64,000 bases of DNA from an uncultured Actinomycetes bacterium (GTDB taxonomy: Bacteria > Actinomycetota > Thermoleophilia > UBA2241). Shown piece by piece: positions 6,381 through 39,768 of this stretch; within the stretch, counting starts at the first letter, position 1, and each line of letters starts with the position of its first letter. The notes under the pieces were generated by a model. It saw nothing but the letters and a program-made list of their open reading frames with translations, did not search any database and was not told where the DNA came from. Position numbers and translations under genes: made by a program. The stretch is taken from contig CAVRZA010000006.1 in assembly GCA_963725665.1 (NCBI GenBank), positions 416,001 through 480,000 on the forward strand. Direction: 5' to 3'.

Positions 6381-6732
6381 CTCTCCTCCTCAAGCGAACG
6401 CGGTCGCTCTGTGGTCTCGCCGCTCCCCGATCCGAGAAAGGGCAACGCCCGCTCGACCCTCCGCCAGCCCGCCTATCGGCCCGCGGAGCCACTTTCTATA
6501 GTACCCGGAATCCCCGACGCTCACGACCCGGCCTCCGACGCTCCCGGGTGACGTAGGAGACGTCGCCGACCTTCGTTCCGAAGTGGTCTGGCGGGAAGCG
6601 CAGGAAGCGACGCGAGAGCGGCTCGCCGCCGAGTGTTCCCTGAAGAGCGCCGCGCCACACGCGCGCGACGGGGTTCCAGGATAGAGCGACTATACCACGG
6701 GCGAGGGTGAAACGGCTCTGTAGGCCGGCCGC

Positions 6733-8217
6733 CTAGCCGCGCAGCTGCGGAAAGAGGATGACGTCGCGGATCGAAGCGGCGCCGGTGAGGATCATGACGA
6801 CGCGGTCGATCCCCATGCCCATGCCGCCCGTGGGCGGCATGCCGTGCTCCATCGCCTCGAGGAAGTCCTCGTCGAGACGATGGGCCGTCTCGTCGCCGGC
6901 CGCAAGGTCGTCCATGTGCTGCAGGAAGCGCTCCCGCTGGTCGTCGGGGTCGTTGAGCTCGGAGAACGCGTTGCTGGTCTCCATCCCGGCGATGAAGCCC
7001 TCGAAGCGCTCGACGAAGCGCGGATCGTGGGGCGTCTTCTTCGCGAAGGGGCTCGTCTCGATCGGATGCTCGGTGATGAACACCGGCTGGATCAGGTCCG
7101 GTTCGACCGTCTCCGAGAAGAGCTCGTCGACCTGCAGCCCCCACGTCGGCGCCAGGGGGACCCTCTCGTCGAGGCCTTTCGCCTTGATGGCGGCCTGCAA
7201 GCCGGCCACTTCGCGCACGTCGTCGGCGCCGATGTCGATGCCGGTCTTCTCGCGGATGGCCTCACGCATCGTCTTGCGCGGCCACGGAGGGGTGAGGTCG
7301 ATCTCGTGGTCGCGGAACGTGACTTTGAGGTCTCCGACGACCCGGGCGGCTGTCACCAGCAGCTCTTCCACCATGTCCATCACATGGTTGTAGTCGACGT
7401 AGGCCTCGTAGGTCTCGAGCATGGTGAACTCGGGGTTGTGCTTGAAACTCACGCCTTCGTTGCGGAAGTCCTTGCCGATCTCATAGACCTTGTCGATGCC
7501 GCCGATGATGAGTCGCTTGAGATAGAGCTCGACGGCGATGCGCAGGTACAGGTCGCGATGCAGCTCGTTGTGGTGCGTCACGAACGGCCGCGCCATGGCG
7601 CCACCGTAGAGCGGCTGCAGGATCGGAGTCTCGACCTCGACGAAGCCACGCTCGTCGAGGAACTCGCGGATGGCCGAGATGATCCGCGCGCGCTTCATGA
7701 AGACCTCGCGCGACTCGTCGTTGACGATCGTGTCGAGGTAGCGCTTACGGTAGCGGAGCTCGACGTCGTGCAGGCCGTGGAACTTCTCCGGCAACGGACG
7801 CACCGACTTGGTGAGGAGCTCGACCGAGCTCACGCGCAGCGAGAGCTCTCCGCGGCGCGTGCGCAGCATCGTGCCCTCGGCGCCGATGATGTCGCCCAGG
7901 TCGAGATCGCGCACCGCCTCGTAGGCGTCGCCGAGCGAGTCGGCGGAGGCGAGCAGCTGCAGCTCGCCGCTGCCGTCCTTCACCACCAGGAATGAGAGCC
8001 CGCCGTGCAGGCGCTTGGCCATGACGCGGCCGGCTACGCGGTGGACGGCCGCGTCTTCCTCGCCGTCGGCGAGCCGCTCGTAACTCTCACGCAGGCCCGC
8101 TATCTCTTCGCGCCGATCGTACTTGGTCGGGAACGGTACGGCGCAGCGCCGGCGCAACTCGTCGAGCTTGCGCCGCCGTTCTTCGAGGAGGCTCCCCGGC
8201 TGCTCGTCAGAGTGCAC
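6733..8217 (-). CDS. lysS: Lysyl-tRNA synthetase (class II)
   Basis: FRNEG..HNPEFTMLE, GMPPTGGMGMGIDR, DVILFP. Confidence 0.96.
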   Translation of the reverse strand: MHSDEQPGSLLEERRRKLDELRRRCAVPFPTKYDRREEIAGLRESYERLADGEEDAAVHRVAGRVMAKRLHGGLSFLVVKDGSGELQLLASADSLGDAYEAVRDLDLGDIIGAEGTMLRTRRGELSLRVSSVELLTKSVRPLPEKFHGLHDVELRYRKRYLDTIVNDESREVFMKRARIISAIREFLDERGFVEVETPILQPLYGGAMARPFVTHHNELHRDLYLRIAVELYLKRLIIGGIDKVYEIGKDFRNEGVSFKHNPEFTMLETYEAYVDYNHVMDMVEELLVTAARVVGDLKVTFRDHEIDLTPPWPRKTMREAIREKTGIDIGADDVREVAGLQAAIKAKGLDERVPLAPTWGLQVDELFSETVEPDLIQPVFITEHPIETSPFAKKTPHDPRFVERFEGFIAGMETSNAFSELNDPDDQRERFLQHMDDLAAGDETAHRLDEDFLEAMEHGMPPTGGMGMGIDRVVMILTGAASIRDVILFPQLRG

Positions 8218-8233
8218 GCGAGAGACTGCCGGC

Positions 8234-8716
8234 CTAGTCGGCCCGTTCTATCGTGAGGATCTTGAGGTGCATCGCGCCCTGCGGCACCGTCACCGTGACC
8301 TCGTCGCCGGGGACCTGGCCGATGATGGCGCGACCCACGGGAGACTCGTTGGAGAGCTTGTGTTTCGATGGGTCGGCCTCGGCCGACCCGACGATCGAGT
8401 ACTCGAGGACCGCGCCGCGGTCCATGTCCTGCAGCGTGACCTTGGTGCCCACGCCGACGGTATCGGTCTTCACGTCCTTGGCGTCGATCACGATGGCGCT
8501 GCGCAGTCTCTCCTCGAGGGCGAAGATGCGCTGTTCCAGCATCGCCTGCTCGTTCTTGGCGTCGTCGTACTCGGAGTTCTCGCTGATGTCGCCGAAGTAG
8601 CGCGACTCTTTGATGCGCTCGGCGACCTCCTCACGCTTCTTGGTCGAGAGGTAGTCGATCTCCTCCTTGAGCCTCCGATAACCCTCGGGGGTGAGGATGA
8701 TCTCTCTGTCCAGCAA
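8234..8716 (-). CDS. greA: Transcription elongation factor GreA
   Basis: GDISENSEYDDAKNEQ, SPVGRAIIG; TTG start at 8716 follows AAGGAG. Confidence 0.95.
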   Translation of the reverse strand: MLDREIILTPEGYRRLKEEIDYLSTKKREEVAERIKESRYFGDISENSEYDDAKNEQAMLEQRIFALEERLRSAIVIDAKDVKTDTVGVGTKVTLQDMDRGAVLEYSIVGSAEADPSKHKLSNESPVGRAIIGQVPGDEVTVTVPQGAMHLKILTIERAD

Positions 8717-9821: not shown

Positions 9822-10610
9822 CTAGCTCTCGCGCTCGTGCGCCGGGCGCTGGCGCCGGAGGAGGATCTCGATGCCCTTCAGGGTGAGGAAGGGGTCGACG
9901 GCCGAGATCGTCGTCGTGTGGCGCGCGATGAGCTCGGCGAGGCCGCCCGTCGCTACGACGGGCGCGGCCTCGCCGAGCTCATCGCGCACGGCGGCGACGA
10001 TCCCGTCGACCTGTCCGGCGAAGCCGTACACGGCGCCGACCTGCATCGCCTCGACCGTGTCGCGGCCGATGCGGCGCTCGGGCTCCGCGATATCGACCTT
10101 GATCAGCTTCGCGGCCCGCGTCGTGAGCGCCTCCATCGACACCTCCACGCCGGGAGCGATGACGCCCCCGGCGTAGTCGCCCTCAGCGTTCACCACGTCG
10201 AAGTTGGTCGAGGTGCCGAAGTCGACCACGATCAGCGGGCGACCGTAGAACTCGGCCCCCGCCACCGCGTTGACGATGCGGTCGGCGCCCACCTCAGCCG
10301 GGTTCTTGAGCAGGATGCGCATGCCGGTGCGCATGCCGGGACCGACGACGAAGGCTTCGACGCCGAGGCGCTTGCGGCACATCTCGGCCCACTGCGTCGT
10401 GAGACGCGGTACGACTGAGGCGATGCCGACCTCGTCCACCAGATCGGCCGGTCTCGCGTCACGCAGCGAGAAGAAGCCGACGAGGAGCCCGGCGAGCTCG
10501 TCGCCCGTGCGATGACGCACCGTAGCGATGCGCCAGTGGTCGATGACCTCGCGGCCGTCGAGGAGGCCGATGGCCGTCTGCGTGTTGCCGACGTCGACCG
10601 CGAGAAGCAC
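9822..10610 (-). CDS. coaX: Type III pantothenate kinase
   Basis: LLAVDVGNTQT, EVGADRI, VDFGTSTNFD. Confidence 0.93.
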   Translation of the reverse strand: MLLAVDVGNTQTAIGLLDGREVIDHWRIATVRHRTGDELAGLLVGFFSLRDARPADLVDEVGIASVVPRLTTQWAEMCRKRLGVEAFVVGPGMRTGMRILLKNPAEVGADRIVNAVAGAEFYGRPLIVVDFGTSTNFDVVNAEGDYAGGVIAPGVEVSMEALTTRAAKLIKVDIAEPERRIGRDTVEAMQVGAVYGFAGQVDGIVAAVRDELGEAAPVVATGGLAELIARHTTTISAVDPFLTLKGIEILLRRQRPAHERES

Positions 10611-11437
10611 TAGCACACCGCCTCGACGACCATGTGCAGGTCGATCCACGGCGCGTGCGTGGTCAGCGCGCCGACACTGATGATGTCGGCGCCGGCGTCG
10701 GCCAGCGCGCGCACGTTCTCGAGCCGTACCCCGCCGGAGACCTCGACCACGGCGCGGCCGGCGACCCGGGCGACCGCCGCGCGCACGGTCTCAAGGTCCA
10801 TGTTGTCGAGCAGCACGGCGGGGACCCCGCACGAGAGCGCCTCGTCGAGCTGCTGGAGCGTGTCGACCTCGACGATCAGCCCGTGGGCGTGCGCGAGGCC
10901 GGCGCGCACCCGCGCGACGGCCTCGCGCACGCCCCCGGCCGCCGCGACGTGGTTGTCCTTGATCATGGCCGCGTCGAAGAGCCCGAAGCGGTGCGGTGCC
11001 GCGCCCCCATGCGCCATGGCGGCGCGCTCGAGGGCGCGCAGGCCCGGCGTCGTCTTGCGCGTGCCGGCGATGCGCGCGCCCGTGCCTTCGGTCTCGGCGA
11101 CGAAGCGCGCCGTCTGCGCGGCCACGCCCGAGAGGCGGGCGAGGAAGTTGAGCCCGGTGCGCTCGAGGGCCAGGATGCTCGCGGACCGGCCCTGGAGCGC
11201 ACAGAGCGTGGCGCCGGGGGCGAAGCGCCCGCCGTCGCGCACCACGAACGTGACCGCGAGCTCGGGGTCCACGAGGCGGGCCGCGGCGGCGAACGGCTCG
11301 CTGCCGCTGAGAACGCCTTCTTCGCGCGCCTCGACGCGGGCCCTGCCGGGCCCGTCGAAGGCGCCCCCCGTGAGGTCACCGTAGCCGGCGAGGTCCTCCG
11401 CGAGTGCGCGCTCGGCGGCCAGCCGCGCGTCGTCCAC
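10610..11437 (-). CDS. nadC: Nicotinate-nucleotide pyrophosphorylase
   Basis: TRKTTPGLR, MIKDNH, LLDNM. Confidence 0.95.
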   Translation of the reverse strand: MDDARLAAERALAEDLAGYGDLTGGAFDGPGRARVEAREEGVLSGSEPFAAAARLVDPELAVTFVVRDGGRFAPGATLCALQGRSASILALERTGLNFLARLSGVAAQTARFVAETEGTGARIAGTRKTTPGLRALERAAMAHGGAAPHRFGLFDAAMIKDNHVAAAGGVREAVARVRAGLAHAHGLIVEVDTLQQLDEALSCGVPAVLLDNMDLETVRAAVARVAGRAVVEVSGGVRLENVRALADAGADIISVGALTTHAPWIDLHMVVEAVC

Positions 11438-16605: not shown

Positions 16606-18550
<1,945 letters not shown>

Positions 18551-18814
18551 TTGCTTCTCTCCTCGCGTGCCGCCCGCGACAGCCTCGCGTCGGTCGCGGC
18601 TAGACTCGACAGTAGCATACCCCCCGGGGAGTCTCAAAGAACCGCGCGTGGCCGCCGGGGGATACGGTGCGCCGCATATACGTACGACGAACCGACGATG
18701 AAGCCTGCCTGGCCGGGTCGCGACCGACAAGCGGCGTCGCCCGCCGAACCGGTCGCTCGGCCGGTCGCAGACGCGGCCTCAAGCCTCTGCCCGTCCGACC
18801 GTGGCGGGTCGTCG

Positions 18815-21423: not shown

Positions 21424-22194
21424 CTAGGAGGTCGCCGCCTCCACCTGCGCCTGCTCCGCCGTCTCGCCGGCCTCGCCCGCCGGACGCTCGAAGAGGACCC
21501 GATACACGAGACCACCGACCACGCCGCCGACGATCGGGAAGACGATGAAGACCCAGAGCTGCGAGAGCGCCCAGCCCCCGACGAAGAGCGCCGGCGCCAG
21601 GCTGCGCGCCGGGTTGACGCTGGTGTTGTCGACGGGGATGGAGATCAGGTGGATGAGCGTCAGCGTGAGGCCGATGGCGAGAGGAGCCAGCGCCGCGGGG
21701 GCGCGCTTGTCGGTGGCGCCGTGGATGACGAACAGAAAGAAGAGCGTGAGCACGATCTCGGCGAGGATGACCGCCGCCAGCGAGTAGCCGCCCGGCGAGT
21801 GGGCGCCGTAGCCGTTGGAGCCGAAGCCGTCCGCCAGGCTGAAGCCCTTGGCCCCCGAGGCGATGCCATAGAGGACGGCGGCGGCGGCGATGGCGCCGGC
21901 CACTTGCGCCACGATGTAGCCGAGTAGCTCGCGAGCTGGGAAGCGTCCGCCCGCCCAGAGGCCGATGGAGACGGCCGGGTTGAGGTGGGCCCCGGAGATG
22001 GGGCCGACGGCGTAGGCCATGGTGACGACCGTGAGGCCGAAGGCGAGCGCCACGCCCATGAAGCCGATGCCGATGTTCCCGAGTGTCGCGCTGCCGAGGA
22101 ACTTGGCGGCAAGGACGGCGCTGCCGACGCCGCCGAAGACGAGCCAGAAGGTGCCGAAGAACTCAGCTGCTGCGCGTTTGCCCAATGACGACAT
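21424..22194 (-). CDS. aqpZ: Aquaporin Z
   Basis: Two NPA motifs (HLNPAV, SVNPARS), [24 protein letters not shown]; ATG at 22194. Confidence 0.94.
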
Positions 22195-22273
22195 GGTGAA
22201 CCCCCAAAGGAAAGGATGGTGATCAGCCTCCAGTACTACCCGGGCACCGATGAAAGTATTCAACGGACGTACG

Positions 22274-22304
22274 AAAAACAAGAAGGGCGCCCGAACGGGC
22301 GCCC
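22274..22304 (-). terminator. Intrinsic terminator, duplicated copy of the tRNA terminator
   Basis: GGGCGCCC-GTTC-GGGCGCCC hairpin followed by a T-rich tract on the - strand. Confidence 0.7.
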
Positions 22305-22361
22305 CGGAAGGCTTTGGTAGCGGGGGCAGGATTCGAACCTGCGACCTTCGGGTTATGAGCC
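22283..22361 (-). repeat. 79-bp direct repeat (att-like): tRNA-fMet 3' part from the anticodon arm plus terminator
   Basis: Identical to 23669-23747. Confidence 0.95.
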
Positions 22362-22482
22362 GCCCCGGGGCAGCAACCGGGAGTGAGAGCGCAGCAGAGC
22401 TGGTCGCGACGATGCTGGACGCGGCTTGAGGCAGAGGCGGGCGGGCGACAGCACCCGCAAACAGCCCACAGGAGCCATCGAA

Positions 22483-22514
22483 GAGGCCCGCTGCCCTCAC
22501 GGGTGGCGGGCCTC
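22483..22514. terminator. GC-rich hairpin, possible terminator
   Basis: GAGGCCCGCTGCCC-TCAC-GGGTGGCGGGCCTC. Confidence 0.5.
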
Positions 22515-22567
22515 CTGGCGCCCGGTCTTGACCACCGCTTACGTGCGGCGGCCGTCTCTGTTCTTGT

Positions 22568-23161
22568 TCACGCAGCGCTGCACAGCGGGTCTTCGGGATG
22601 CTGCGCGCAGTAGCTCGCCGACACGTGCTCGCCGGGCTGCCGGCGGCGGCGAGCCAGTGCCCACGCGGCGATGACGATGATGAGCGCGGCCGCGGCCGAG
22701 CCGGCAACGATCCAGGTGGTCGTTGAAGAGATGCCGGACGAGGCAGAACCCTGCGCGGTCGCCACGCGGGGCGCGGACGACCCGGCGTTGGAGTAGTAGG
22801 AGCCCCAGGCCCACCCGGGCAGCTGCGCGGCCGCCACGCGGGGCGCGGACGACCCGGCGTTGGAGTAGTAGGAGCCCCAGGCCCACCCGGGCAGCTGCGC
22901 GGCCGCCACGCGGGGCGCGGACGACCCGGCGTTGGAGTAGTAGGAGCCCCAGGCCCACCCGGGCAGCTGCGCGGCCGCCACGCGGGGCGCGGACGACCCG
23001 GCGTTGGAGTAGGAGAAGCCCCAGGCCCACCCGGGCTCGCCGCGAGGCGAACTCGTCGGTGGCGCAGCCTGCGCGGCCTGGACGGCCAGCGCGACGACGA
23101 GCAGCGACAACAGGAGCAGGCCCGCAAGACGCACGAGCCGTGTCTGTGGTGAAGTGTTCAT
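22568..23161 (-). CDS. Hypothetical secreted, C-terminally membrane-anchored protein with four 24-aa Trp/Tyr-rich repeats
   Basis: RBS GAGGTGAGG, ATG 23161, signal peptide ending AQA, 4x PGWAWG(FS/SY)[15 protein letters not shown], TM helix + [15 protein letters not shown] tail. Confidence 0.85.
22751..23035. repeat. Tandem array of four near-identical 72-bp units (coding)
   Basis: GCCACGCGGGGCGCGGACGACCCGGCGTTGGAGTAG recurs at 22761, 22833, 22905 and 22977. Confidence 0.95.
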
Positions 23162-23668
23162 GTCCTCACCTCTGGACGCCGACACTGCCGTCGCGGCAGG
23201 GTCAACGATCTCTTCGAGACGGGAAACCCCGCCGATAGGGGGTCTCTTGCCCGGATAGGCCCGGGATAAACCCTATCTCCGCAGGGTTAACATTTCGGTG
23301 ACCGACCTCGCCCGTGCCAACTCATCGTCCACCTTGCAGGTTGACCGGAGCGCCTTCTAATGTGGCGCCAGACCGGACGTTCTGTGCGTGTGGGCGATGT
23401 CCCTGAACCGGTTACTGGTCATCTTGGGAGGCACGGCGGCTACGCTGCCGAGGCACCGGTTACAGAAGATAGCCGCCCCTCCCGCGCCTCTTCGCACTTC
23501 CCATGCGTCAAGCCGTCGGTCACATAGTCGGCCCACGGAGAAGCGAGGACTTTCCGAGGACTTTGGCTGTTCTGCGCAAGCATGAGGGCGCACCACTCCC
23601 CCTTCTGCGGGAGTTGCGGGCGCACCACTCACCAAGCGGAAAGTGGTGATTACCAGCTAGAAAAAGAA

Positions 23669-23777
<109 letters not shown>

Positions 23778-23792
23778 TCGTAAGGGAAAAGC

Positions 23793-23822
23793 ATGTTACA
23801 ACTTGCGCGCCCCGACTGTAAA
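23793..23822 (-). promoter_or_regulatory. Putative sigma-A promoter of the tRNA
   Basis: TTTACA-18 bp-TAACAT just upstream of the tRNA. Confidence 0.5.
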
Positions 23823-24259
23823 GCCCCAGCTCGAGTGGCTCTCTCGTGAAGCAGCGGATCAGGGCGTGGAGTGCCTTCTCATGCGACGCGAGGGGGCCCC
23901 GCTGAGGCAATGGAGCCCCGCGATCGTCACCCCCCGTCGGCGCAATCGCCACCCCCGAACGCACCCCGGTGGGACTCCACGCACGCCTCATCGGCGTACT
24001 GTCGTTCGGGCTGGGGCGCCGTCCGACCGTAAGCACCGCTCCGGCGTGACGGTGAGCACGCCGGCGTGCGCGACCGTGAGCACGCCGCCGGCGTGACCGT
24101 GAGTACAGGCCGCGCGCGACTGTGCATAACCTCTCCCACGCGGGCGCGCGGACGACGCCCCCGCACCCTGCGCGACTCGATACAAGGGAGCCACCCCCAA
24201 GAGCCGGTCGTTCTCGGTAAAGGCAAGGGCCGCCGGGCCGATACAGGTCCACGAGGAGC

Positions 24260-25396
24260 ATGCTCTCAAGACACGACAAAGGCGGAGCCGTGGCCAGAAG
24301 AGTCGGCGCTGTCGCCGTGGCGGCGGCCGCGTTGTGCTTGATCGCGGCCGCCGCCCTCCTTTCATCGCCGACGCCGGCGGCCGCTGCGCCAGCCGTGAAG
24401 GTGCTGGTCATCGGCAGGTCGCCGACGAGCCTGCCCGAGCTCACTCGCGCGGCCGCCAAGGTCCGCGCTCAGATCCGCCGCCTCGACGATGACCTCGAGG
24501 TGCTCACCGAACGCTACAACGCCGCGCGCGTGCGCCTCGACGCCATCGACGCCGAGCTCACCCAGTCTCGCCTGCAGCTCTCGAGCACGCAGGCGGCCCT
24601 GCAGCGGCAGCAGGAGCTCCTCAGCCGGCGCATGGCCGAGATGTACAAGATGGGCGAGTACGGGTGGCTCGAGGTGTTGCTCAACGCGGGCGGCTTCTCA
24701 GACGCCGAGACCCAGGTCGTCTTCTTCCGCCTCATCCGCGAGCAGGACCGTCTCGAACACCAGCGACTCGAGCAGCTCGCCGCCGAGGTGCAGGCCATCG
24801 AAGCGACGATAGCCGACCGCCGCGAGCAAGCCCTCGAGGTCAAGGCGGAGGTCGACGCCGACCGCGCCCTGATCGAGCAGAAGCTCGCGGCGCGGCAGGA
24901 GATCCTCGACGGCCTCGACGGCAAGATCACGGCCATCCTCGCTCGACAGGCGCGCCTCGAGGCTGCCGAGGCCGCCCGCCTGGCGCGCCTTGCCGGCGTC
25001 GACCTGCGCAGCGTCCACGGCACCCCGGCACAGATCGCCGCCGTGCGCTCCTGCATGCGCCATCTCGGCGTCCCCTACGTCTGGGGCGGGGCAGGCCCCG
25101 GCGGGTTCGACTGCTCCGGGCTCGTCATGTACGTGTTCGCCCGCTTCGGCGTCGTGCTGCCGCACTACGCCGCCAGTCAAGCCACGATGGGCGTGCCCGT
25201 GCCCCCCGACCAGCTCCAGCCCGCCGACCTCGTCTTCTTCGGCAGCCCCGTGCCAGGGGGGATCCACCACGTCGGCATGTACGTCGGCAACGGCCTCTTC
25301 ATCGAGGCGCCGCACACCGGCGACGTCGTCAAGGTCAGCCTCCTCGCGGGGCGGGGCATGACGGCCGCCCGTCGCTACCCCCTGACGCTGCCCTAG
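24260..25396 (+). CDS. Secreted coiled-coil NlpC/P60 (C40) peptidoglycan endopeptidase
   Basis: Signal peptide, long coiled coil, PYVWGG..FDCSGL..HHVGMYVG. Confidence 0.92.
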   Translation: MLSRHDKGGAVARRVGAVAVAAAALCLIAAAALLSSPTPAAAAPAVKVLVIGRSPTSLPELTRAAAKVRAQIRRLDDDLEVLTERYNAARVRLDAIDAELTQSRLQLSSTQAALQRQQELLSRRMAEMYKMGEYGWLEVLLNAGGFSDAETQVVFFRLIREQDRLEHQRLEQLAAEVQAIEATIADRREQALEVKAEVDADRALIEQKLAARQEILDGLDGKITAILARQARLEAAEAARLARLAGVDLRSVHGTPAQIAAVRSCMRHLGVPYVWGGAGPGGFDCSGLVMYVFARFGVVLPHYAASQATMGVPVPPDQLQPADLVFFGSPVPGGIHHVGMYVGNGLFIEAPHTGDVVKVSLLAGRGMTAARRYPLTLP

Positions 25397-37935: not shown

Positions 37936-39768
37936 CTACAGCTCTTCCGCAGACGAACGGCGGCGGCGCAGCAGCCACACGACCACACCGACCACGACGG
38001 CGGCCACAGCGACGGGCACGATCCATACCCATACCGACGAGCCGCCGCCCTGCTCTTCAACCGCAGCCGTCGCCGGCTTGAGATCGATGTAGGTCGTGCG
38101 CATGAGGTTCCAGATCGGCCCGCCGTTCTTGGGCGGTACGAGATGCCAACCCGTCCACTTGTCCGCTCGGTAGGCCTCGAGGTTCACGTTGTACCAGAGC
38201 ACCAGGTAGGGCGACTCCTTGTAGAGGAACTGCTGCATCTGGTCGATGATGGCCTTGCGCTGCGAGGTGTCGCTAGGGTTGGCGGGATCGACCGCCGTCG
38301 CCTGCTGCTCGTAGAGCTTGTCGTAGGCGGGGTTCGAGTAGAAGCAGTCGCTCCAGCTCTGTATCTGATCGGTGGTAAATACCGACAGCATGAAGCCCGG
38401 GTCGATGTCGCCGCCCCAGCTCCAGAGGTACATGTCGAAGTCGCCCGCGTAGTTGAGGTCGTAGAAGGCACCCTCCTCAACGGGTCGGAGGCGCGTCTTG
38501 ATGCCGACGTCCTTCAGCCACACGCTGACCAGCTTCGCCGTTGTGACCTCTTCCGGGTAGTCGGTCAGCGGCGTGAGGCGGAAGTCGAGCTTGTTGCCCT
38601 TGGCGTCCTCGCGCACCCCGTCGCCGTCCCGATCCGTGTAGCCGGCCTCGTGGAGGATCTGCTTGGCCTTGTCGGGGTTGTAGGAGATGAGCTGGTCGGC
38701 CGGAGGCTCCCAGTAGTAGGGCGAGATCGGCGAGATCACGGTGGTTCCCGGCTTGGCAAGGCCCGACATGGCGGCGTCGACGATCTTCTGTCTGTCGATC
38801 GCCCACGAGCAGGCGAGACGGATGCGATAGTCGAGGAGCAACGGGTTGCCCTTCGACTTCGACGACTGCCAGCAGTTGAACCCGAGCTCGTAGAAGCCGA
38901 TGTAGGGAGCGTTGACCGTCTCCCAGCCGTTGGCTACCTTGAGCGCTCCGCAGCTGCGCAGCGGGGACGGAGTAGGCGGCGTCGAGGTTGCCCGCCTTGT
39001 AGTCCTGCACCATCGAGTCGGGGTTCTGATAGACGCTGTAGAGAATGGCGTCGAGGGTCGGAGCGCCGCCGAAGTACTGCTTGTTGGCGACCAGCCGCGA
39101 CGAACTTGCTCTTCTTCGCCTCGACCACCTGGAAGGGGCCGCTGCCGATCGTCGGCACGTTGGCCCACGAGTCGAGCTTGTCCTTGGGCACCTTGCTCCA
39201 GACGTGCTCCGGCAGGATGGGGATGTAGAGCGCCAGCATCCCTGCATTGGGCTTGCTGGACTCGATGACGAGCGTCGTGTCGTCCGGGGCCGTGACGTTC
39301 TTCACGCCGACCAGGTAGCTCGTGTACGCGTCTAAGGTCGTTGTCGAGGATGAGGTTGTACGTGAAGGCGACGTCGCGCGCCGTGAGCGGCTCGCCGTCC
39401 TGCCACTTCACCCCGGAGCGGATCTTGAAGGTCCATGCCTTGCCGTCGGCGCTCGTCGTCCAGCTCTCAGCCAAATCGGGGGCGGGCTTGTAGTCGTCGT
39501 CGTACCAGGTGAGGAAGTCATAGTTGAGGCGGAAGGACTCCCACGTGATGGAGCTCCACGAGCCGAAGGGGTTCATGCCGTCGATGTCCTCGGGCACGCC
39601 GATCTTCAGCGTCAGCTCCCCGGTCGCACCCGGCGACGCCGACACAGACGACCCGACGTACAGCGACGGCGTCGGCGAGGGCGACGCGGCCGCCGCCGCG
39701 GCGGGCAGCGCAGCAAGCGCCGCCGCGACGGCGGCCGCGATGAGTGACAGCAGTGCGATCCGTTTCAT
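37936..39768 (-). CDS. Family 5 (OppA/DppA) ABC substrate-binding protein 2, with three +1 indels (~39334, ~39097, ~38947)
   Basis: PDLAESW, WQDGEPLTARDVAFT, GSGPF (shifted frame), DRDGDGVRE; C-terminal TM + RRRR. Confidence 0.85.
   Translation of the reverse strand: MKRIALLSLIAAAVAAALAALPAAAAAASPSPTPSLYVGSSVSASPGATGELTLKIGVPEDIDGMNPFGSWSSITWESFRLNYDFLTWYDDDYKPAPDLAESWTTSADGKAWTFKIRSGVKWQDGEPLTARDVAFTYNLILDNDLRRVHELPGRREERHGPGRHDARHRVQQAQCRDAGALHPHPAGARLEQGAQGQARLVGQRADDRQRPLPGGRGEEEQVRRGWSPTSSTSAALRPSTPFSTASIRTPTRWCRTTRRATSTPPTPSPLRSCGALKVANGWETVNAPYIGFYELGFNCWQSSKSKGNPLLLDYRIRLACSWAIDRQKIVDAAMSGLAKPGTTVISPISPYYWEPPADQLISYNPDKAKQILHEAGYTDRDGDGVREDAKGNKLDFRLTPLTDYPEEVTTAKLVSVWLKDVGIKTRLRPVEEGAFYDLNYAGDFDMYLWSWGGDIDPGFMLSVFTTDQIQSWSDCFYSNPAYDKLYEQQATAVDPANPSDTSQRKAIIDQMQQFLYKESPYLVLWYNVNLEAYRADKWTGWHLVPPKNGGPIWNLMRTTYIDLKPATAAVEEQGGGSSVWVWIVPVAVAAVVVGVVVWLLRRRRSSAEEL

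Follow-up and report, generated by a model that had tools for sequence, protein, structure and literature searches.

A gene on the minus strand of a 64,000-nucleotide (nt) stretch of DNA from an uncultured Actinomycetes bacterium (contig CAVRZA010000006.1, positions 416,001 to 480,000; hereafter the window) encodes, at positions 22568-23161, a 197-residue protein carrying four near-identical aromatic units in tandem, and the question raised by this locus is what such units are for. A first-pass annotation, made from the letters alone, had left two alternatives: the units could be the cores of a multi-core peptide precursor, or they could be the repeats of a surface protein. The second fits the observations presented below, while the first fails a test that the annotation itself had named, as the homologues mostly carry the aromatic core once or not at all. 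We favor, with a probability of roughly one half, a variable-number-repeat, disordered, membrane-anchored surface protein, that is, a variable tag for adhesion or self-association and/or for altered recognition of the cell.

The gene and its predicted product

In full, the open reading frame (ORF) spans 22568-23185 and gives 205 residues from a GTG, whereas the ATG at 23161 gives 197 residues and the stop. The latter is the start codon used throughout the family, since M1 is invariant in the alignment of 32 members and a conserved Shine-Dalgarno block (AGAGGTGAG) lies immediately 5' of this ATG in the aligned relatives. The GC content at the three codon positions (0.65, 0.69 and 0.89, respectively) fits a real reading frame in a genome of about 70% GC, and the interval 22568-23161 is a real gene.

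The first 32 residues (23161-23066) form a predicted signal peptide with a basic N-terminus, a hydrophobic core and the end AQA. Residues 43-138 comprise four tandem units of 72 nt, or 24 residues, each with the motif GWAWG (22748-23035), and are followed by a Ser/Thr stalk, a predicted hydrophobic transmembrane (TM) helix of 21 residues bracketed by two invariant tryptophans (residues 150-170; 22714-22652), RRRR directly after the helix (residues 171-174), and a predicted cytoplasmic tail of 23 residues (175-197) with Cys185, His188 and Cys194. The signal peptide, the four units, the TM helix and RRRR are as the first-pass annotation had described them.

Tandem Repeats Finder reports the array at 22751-23036 (period 72, 4.0 copies, 98% matches, no indels, score 551); in the register of the protein the units begin at 23035, 22963, 22891 and 22819. 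The second and the third units are identical in 72 of 72 bases, the first differs from them by two bases that give FSY in place of SYY, and the fourth has a single G>A (Ala>Thr) ahead of the array end. A unit-by-unit comparison thereby confirms one WAWGFSY and three WAWGSYY cores with a near-constant linker, the lone A>T change noted earlier in the last linker being the G>A of the fourth unit. The array is the product of a recent in-frame expansion. An exact 102-nt piece of the array (22904-23005) occurs in one metatranscriptome run, which is too little to claim expression.

The putative export and anchoring features seen in the sequence reappear as helices (residues 5-31 and 147-174) in the AlphaFold2 model built with the family alignment. 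Structure prediction had been proposed as a check on the units: the two helices and the tail (predicted local distance difference test, pLDDT, about 83) are modelled confidently, and the repeats remain without a confident fold (pLDDT about 40 for residues 40-141).

Conserved scaffold and variable middle of the family

The host genome (3.73 Mb in 12 contigs; 97.5% complete, 5.0% contamination) has three paralogs, with four GWAWG units in the window copy, two in the copy labelled C1 and one in the copy labelled C8. Over about 1 kb the latter two share 97-99.8% identity, the difference between their arrays being exactly one unit; the window copy has about 80% DNA identity to them over 22519-23401, that is, over the gene, 240 nt upstream and 50 nt downstream.

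Beyond the host, a word-based search yielded 48 relatives, all of them unnamed or "hypothetical" except three JGI "LPXTG-motif" proteins and one misnamed oxidase subunit. A hidden Markov model search of 1.84 billion representatives gave 156 proteins at E<=1e-3, 104 at <=1e-10 and 34 at <=1e-30; the listed proteins are, with few exceptions, short at about 45-340 residues, while one has 415 and another 594. The family profile matches 32 of the 89 genomes of the order to which the window belongs, 11 of 32 high-quality genomes and six of 11 genera; a positive genome has between one and six matches when split hits are counted separately. No match was found in 16 genomes from six other families of the class, searched with the window protein (P0001) alone. 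The hosts of the relatives are labelled as metagenome-assembled genomes of Actinomycetota, Thermoleophilia or Actinomycetes. The family is unnamed, multi-copy and patchy in distribution, and belongs to uncultured soil and peat actinobacteria.

A match to a known family had been named in advance as a result that would speak against the first-pass proposal; none above threshold was found in any of the following collections. Pfam and NCBIfam scans of P0001 gave sub-threshold matches only, PHROGs matched none of five family members, PADLOC gave one weak match to P0001 (E 0.0017) with no stretch passing alone, the only match in PDB was a signal peptide (E 0.05), and the clusters obtained from ESM Atlas, at <=0.81, were all unnamed ones of Actinomycetota. 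In the portion of the literature covered by our search, nothing relevant was among the matches listed for WAWG, and YCAQHPED had no match.

Within the family, it is the ectodomain with its units that varies most. We counted modules and tails with our own regular expressions over 186 proteins, fragments and marginal hits included. Among 127 complete members, GWAWG is present in 16, GRGG in 54, a QLPTLAQ-like module in 48 and DGWLT in five, and 31 have none of these. The GWAWG core is therefore missing from 111 of the 127; its 16 carriers have it once in 13 cases, twice in two, and four times in the window gene only. The middle of the family is a mosaic of at least four mutually unrelated repeat modules.

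The number of modules varies as well. One and the same module is present one, two, three and four times in the near-identical P0008, P0009, P0003 and L027 gene, respectively, and further allele series differ only in module number (P0043/P0044, P0045/P0038, P0012/P0014 and the L031/L049 genes); the L053 and L055 genes have about seven GRGG-type units each, counted by eye. Thus, as in variable-number tandem repeats, near-identical DNA repeats are in frame and their number differs between close alleles and between paralogs. Two genes of this kind are out of frame in places: at L058 (386-1720) there are two tandem family genes, the first of which is frameshifted across the repeat region, and P0047 is a C1-like allele that leaves the frame within the repeats and is back in frame at the tail. 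Both shifts lie in repeat DNA and could reflect broken copies or sequencing errors.

In composition, A/G/S/T/Q/P make up 71% of the ectodomain; Lys, Asp and Glu are nearly absent, and Cys is missing altogether. Of 476 Gln residues in ectodomains, 201 (42%) directly follow an Ala, although Ala accounts for 19% of residues, so that module borders have this dipeptide in common.

The scaffold shows the opposite tendency. The invariant positions of the 32 aligned sequences are M1, V22, A32 (of AQA), W150, W167, R172, C185 and C194, and the median pairwise identity is 0.53 for the signal peptide and 0.47 for the TM helix with the tail, against 0.29 for the ectodomain (80 cleanly parsed members, 400 random pairs). 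Of 139 members that are shorter than 260 residues and end in a two-Cys tail, 130 have these two cysteines and no other. Two tail types can be distinguished. In the first (C-x8-C, n = 99), a His stands three residues after the first Cys in 84 and the protein ends exactly three residues past the second Cys in 85; in the second (n = 35), C-x6-C is at the very end. C185 and C194 are invariant in both. The ends of the first type (Cys and three mostly small residues; residues 185-197 in P0001) are like a eukaryotic CaaX box in form only.

The Ser/Thr stalk, hydrophobic helix and C-terminal Arg cluster are also reminiscent of sortase substrates (LPXTG, TIGR01167), and three of the 48 relatives bear the JGI name "LPXTG-motif" protein. 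Yet the stalk lacks the LPXTG pentapeptide and about 23 further conserved residues follow the Arg cluster. LPXTG sortase substrates were rejected on scores of 11.0 bits against a cut-off of 15.9 for TIGR01167 and 12.8 against 30 for strep_LAETG, and so were the PEP-CTERM, GlyGly-type, PVV and GVDTG sorting domains (13.8 against 27, 13.6 against 22, 14.0 against 29 and 8.0 against 16, respectively). Substrate-binding proteins of the same genomes likewise end in a Ser/Gly stalk, a TM helix and RRRR, and hence this end is the usual membrane anchor of the lineage rather than a special sorting signal. Examples are family-5 substrate-binding proteins of about 540 residues, in which the Gly/Ser stalk, TM helix and RRRR are followed by a short acidic tail (window 37936-38076, minus strand, L007; C11 444605-444745, L005). 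The frame of the window copy holds one TAG and its middle is apparently translated out of frame, perhaps because of another indel of the assembly.

We suggest that the protein is a type I membrane protein exported via the Sec pathway and probably cleaved after the invariant AQA, with one C-terminal helix holding it in the membrane, RRRR inside and the short two-Cys tail in the cytoplasm. The outer part would be a low-complexity, probably disordered stalk, on which the window copy would display its four aromatic GWAWG units, and slippage or recombination between identical 72-nt units would rapidly alter the number of displayed tips. Aromatic, Gly/Ser/Tyr-rich units of this kind are known for self-association. 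The role may be adhesion or self-association through the aromatic-rich units and/or a changed appearance to phages, mobile elements and neighboring cells. Of the two first-pass readings, the surface repeat protein is the one that agrees with the AQA signal peptide, the C-terminal TM helix with RRRR, the predicted disorder of the ectodomain and the varying unit number between near-identical alleles.

The closest parallels known to us are the Mycoplasma Vlp/Vsa lipoproteins and the streptococcal alpha C/Rib proteins, which share with this family a conserved 5' region, signal peptide and anchor, identical in-frame repeats varying in number, and several paralogs. There is no sequence relation, however: the present family is anchored neither by a lipobox nor by LPXTG but by a simple TM helix, to which a cytoplasmic tail with two Cys is joined; its middle combines several short modules that have no relation to each other, and the hosts are uncultured environmental Actinomycetota, for which immune evasion is no obvious driver.

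Leader, islets and neighboring DNA

About 135 nt 5' of the ATG are conserved throughout the family, and the DNA beyond is not. In the window this leader (23162-23300) comprises the Shine-Dalgarno block next to the ATG, two GC-rich hairpins and an imperfect palindrome (23269-23290), whose 5' half is better conserved than the 3' half; the DNA further upstream (23301-23401, about 80% identity) is common only to the two paralogs of the host genome. The palindrome motif has exactly three mismatch-free sites in the host genome, one ahead of each paralog, and is a possible DNA operator. A scan of 22200-23800 gave no sigma-70-like promoter, and in Rfam the interval 22100-24300 had, tRNA aside, no match at the gathering score and no sub-threshold match within 23162-23300.

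As RNA, the window leader folds better than 200 of 200 shuffles (z = -3.2). RNAalifold gave -1.0 kcal/mol with 33 sequences and no pairs with 63 gappy ones. A five-hairpin structure drawn by hand from recurrent single-sequence folds scored no better than column shuffles when 37 sequences were used (176 and 182 of 500). With 63 sequences, its covariation was 0.170 against 0.146 +/- 0.006 and its cells with two-sided changes numbered 86 against 61 (0 of 500 shuffles as high in both cases), with 16 of 500 shuffles for each of two stricter measures; kinship alone can let related sequences beat such shuffles without structure. The best helix is the long one just ahead of the Shine-Dalgarno block, which is 82% paired. 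For seven of its eight pairs, one or more sequences show a change on both sides, and one pair is GC in 31 sequences, AU in 11, GU in four and UA in four. There is thus moderate support, from comparative sequence data, for the leader as a putative structured RNA.

Downstream of the gene, about 55 nt past the stop, a GC-rich hairpin read from the sequence (22485-22512) is a candidate terminator with a weak U-run, which the terminator scan did not call. The 3' flank is kept in the C1 and C8 paralogs (homology over 22488-22527 and 22519-23401). Expression would come from a self-contained unit of about 1 kb consisting of the conserved leader, the gene and the hairpin, placed in the host genome inside small tRNA-linked islets.

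The window copy is the sole gene of a 1.3-kb islet between aqpZ and tRNA-Met (CAT; 23701-23777, minus strand), located 3' of the tRNA and bounded by an 87-nt direct repeat whose copies are 97% identical. Each consists of the 3' 47 nt of tRNA-Met, from the anticodon stem onward, and a 40-nt terminator. The proximal copy (23661-23747) lies within and just 3' of the intact tRNA gene, and the distal one (22275-22361) is a displaced tRNA end with its terminator hairpin (22284-22305) at the islet edge beside aqpZ. The islet claimed by the first-pass annotation is therefore real, a direct repeat of a tRNA 3' end bounding a short insert as in tRNA islands; an ORF scan of it found no integrase.

The C8 copy is situated near the far end of a tRNA-Pro island of about 8.8 kb with a Phage_integrase fragment beside the tRNA. 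At this locus (L025), tRNA-Pro (1235-1312) is followed by the 197-residue fragment (1379-1969), and two extra 46-nt tRNA-Pro 3' ends occur 8.8 and 9.9 kb further on (10066-10114 and 11216-11264), so that a single tRNA seems to carry two stacked elements, of which the second is 1.15 kb long and has two small membrane-protein ORFs. The same island has on its minus strand a cyclic di-GMP-II riboswitch (6683-6770; 66.2 bits against a gathering score of 40) overlapping the 5' end of a frame that matches only positions 52-149 of the Radical_SAM model and lacks the cluster-binding N-terminus; this looks like a riboswitch ahead of a truncated radical SAM gene.

On either side of the C1 copy stands one copy of a 53-nt direct repeat, the two being 81% identical and 1151 nt apart. 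A GC-rich element of 38-53 nt occurs at seven or more sites of the genome, including these flanks (C1 58654-58729 and 59818-59861; C8 232829-232888, 238325-238394 and 239420-239461; C2 148022-148059 and 579757-579794), and had no match in Rfam (window 22100-24300, L024 and L025).

Outside the host genome the link to tRNA genes is looser. A tRNA lies within 700 nt of eight out of 76 distinct family genes, or four out of 44 with at least 700 nt on both flanks, where about 2% would be expected by chance (52 tRNAs in 3.73 Mb); the tRNAs are Met, Ile, Gln, Arg, Glu and Cys, and the related genomes are not independent. At L021, in another genus, the family gene (8001-8405) is 181 nt downstream of a tRNA-Met(CAT) (7743-7819) in a window-like orientation, without a repeated tRNA fragment. 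A search for tRNA-fragment repeats at six such tRNA-adjacent loci yielded none.

These positions bear on the alternative that survives best, namely that the protein is a "moron" cargo of integrative elements that excludes incoming phages or other elements, its repeat variation being a by-product of an arms race. It would account for the self-contained unit with its own leader and hairpin, for the tRNA-Met islet of the window copy, for the island position of the C8 copy with its integrase fragment and extra tRNA ends, for the repeat around the C1 copy and for the patchy distribution. A likeness exists also to the lambda genes bor and lom, prophage morons beside att sites: in both cases a self-contained unit encodes a small envelope protein, here at the edge of a tRNA-linked islet. 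Unlike them, the window copy has no phage gene beside it and no PHROGs match, and most relatives are not beside recognizable mobile genes. The single weak PADLOC match, the missing tRNA-fragment repeats at the six other loci and the lack of any integrase among the two nearest ORFs on each side of 33 further family genes also count against this reading, which we consider unlikely; it overlaps with that of a surface tag, the sole difference being the selective agent.

A separate observation concerns the assembly. The ftsH frame of the window is broken on the minus strand within 17965-18129, the FtsH_ext part (18053-18730) and the AAA+M41 part (16609-17964) being in different frames; the shift is at a G-run near 18060, where loss of a single G would restore the conserved DVAG-VDEA stretch. 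The probable cause is a homopolymer error from long reads in the assembly, a pseudogene being less likely. Given ftsH, the assembly may contain single-base errors; the repeat gene itself is in frame.

Weighing the explanations

Several points weigh against the surface tag. A purely passive tag does not explain why the signal peptide is conserved to such an unusual degree, nor why the two-Cys/His tail is invariant, and both features suggest something beyond it. Surface exposure, cleavage of the signal peptide and disorder are predictions, and low AlphaFold confidence is no proof of disorder. None of the family and structure libraries named above points to a function. The tie to tRNAs and islands is strong in the host genome only, and the missing integrases at the 33 further genes count here as well. 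Finally, public sequencing runs cover the array with short, low-depth contigs, none of which bridges it or can show the copy number (the best run had 0.32 of the sampled words).

If the protein were involved in transmembrane signalling or sensing, its Cys/His tail could bind a metal or sense redox state and report contacts of the ectodomain, similarly to an anti-sigma factor or a co-receptor. This would agree with the two cysteines invariant in both tail types, the regular placement of His and of the protein end in the first type, the confident model of the tail, and sigma-factor genes within two genes at four of the 33 further loci (L073, L076, L083 and L088). Against it, no gene is a constant neighbor of the family, and the tail is short (about 23 residues) and matches no Pfam or NCBIfam domain; the sigma genes probably occupy a single orthologous position shared by related genomes. 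A complex prediction for two copies of residues 140-197 with Zn scored 0.02 against a mark of 0.42 and argues neither for nor against dimerization. We regard a signalling role, too, as unlikely, and somewhat more doubtful than the cargo reading.

According to the other first-pass reading, the protein would be a membrane-tethered multi-core precursor, from which the units would be excised, perhaps at Ala-Gln junctions, for modification by enzymes whose genes lie at other loci. It draws on the four near-identical units with a constant linker, on the Ala enrichment before Gln at module borders, on the 42 radical SAM matches of the host genome, on a radical SAM remnant that lacks its 5' part and is located 2.2 kb away from the C8 paralog (L025; outside the scanned neighbor ORFs) and on a Lant_dehydr_N gene 1.1 kb from one relative (L019). 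If the cores were the product, one would expect them to be kept in homologues, and a modifying enzyme to recur beside the genes. Neither is observed: the core is absent from most complete members and single in 13, the modules are mutually unrelated, and the conserved part is the scaffold, including a cytoplasmic tail needless for a released peptide.

The neighborhood was scanned at 42 family genes with 201 ORFs in total (38 around the three copies of the host genome, 53 around six genes, and 110 around the 33 genes for which the two nearest on each side were taken). The annotation had asked whether homologues keep the scaffold, vary the cores and co-occur with radical SAM, P450 or peptidase genes; the first two hold, and none of the three enzyme types recurs in this set. 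No recurrent partner or candidate maturase family and no P450 was found among the 201 ORFs; apart from the Lant_dehydr_N gene, there is one isolated B12-radical SAM gene two genes away from a family gene (L083). The earlier statement that the window has no maturase stands, as none of the 42 radical SAM matches is in it, nor is there one among the 13 ORFs within about 9 kb of the window gene, and the remnant near the C8 paralog lacks the N-terminal cluster-binding part.

Comparison with known precursors leads the same way. The W-x-W aromatic heptad is shared with darobactin DarA; fungal dikaritin precursors and the yeast alpha-factor likewise have a signal peptide followed by tandem units whose spacer is constant. 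In contrast to these systems, the present gene has neither a radical SAM/SPASM enzyme nor a transporter beside it, and its product is held by a TM helix and ends in a conserved cytoplasmic tail. Family members do not preserve the core, and no dibasic or other known processing site marks the borders of the repeats. A darobactin-type precursor is short and cytoplasmic, with a leader and one core, and without a Sec signal or TM anchor. This type was rejected for the signal peptide with the invariant AQA, the C-terminal TM helix and the lack of an adjacent radical SAM/SPASM maturase. A precursor of the general multi-core type of ribosomally synthesized and post-translationally modified peptides (RiPPs) was rejected as well, since the repeated cores are not kept in homologues and no co-located modifying enzyme or protease recurs. 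We know of no bacterial RiPP precursor with a Sec signal plus a TM anchor. The multi-core reading is thus improbable.

Improbable to the same degree is a variant of it, in which a Sec-exported, tethered polyprotein would free its modules at the Ala-Gln junctions as peptides with N-terminal Gln or pyroglutamate, and enzymes from other loci would mature them. In that case the family would amount to a library, evolving fast, of signal or antibiotic peptides for secretion, with the two-Cys tail and the leader controlling the time of shedding. Such a tethered architecture is, to our knowledge, without precedent in bacteria.

Least probable of all is that the four-unit array is an artefact of assembly and that the gene in reality resembles its paralogs in having one or two units: the identity of the second and third units, at least one homopolymer frameshift in an essential gene (ftsH) and the unbridged public contigs would allow it, but the array is in frame with unique flanks and with first and last units differing from the middle as in real arrays, the 12-contig genome suggests long reads that would span the 288 nt, and relatives independently show one to seven copies of other modules.

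If the protein is the variable surface tag that we favor, abundant uncultured Actinomycetota of peat and soil would own a private multi-copy set of small surface proteins, useful also as a fast-changing marker for strain-resolved metagenomics; no route to a new natural product is opened at present. Two small, testable puzzles come with the family, the invariant Cys-x8-Cys (or Cys-x6-Cys) tail and the leader of about 135 nt that is found only before family genes. The exposed part of these proteins would evolve by module shuffling and repeat slippage, with the export signal, the anchor, the two-Cys tail and the leader held fixed, and the family would then be a compact case of contingency-type surface variation outside pathogens.

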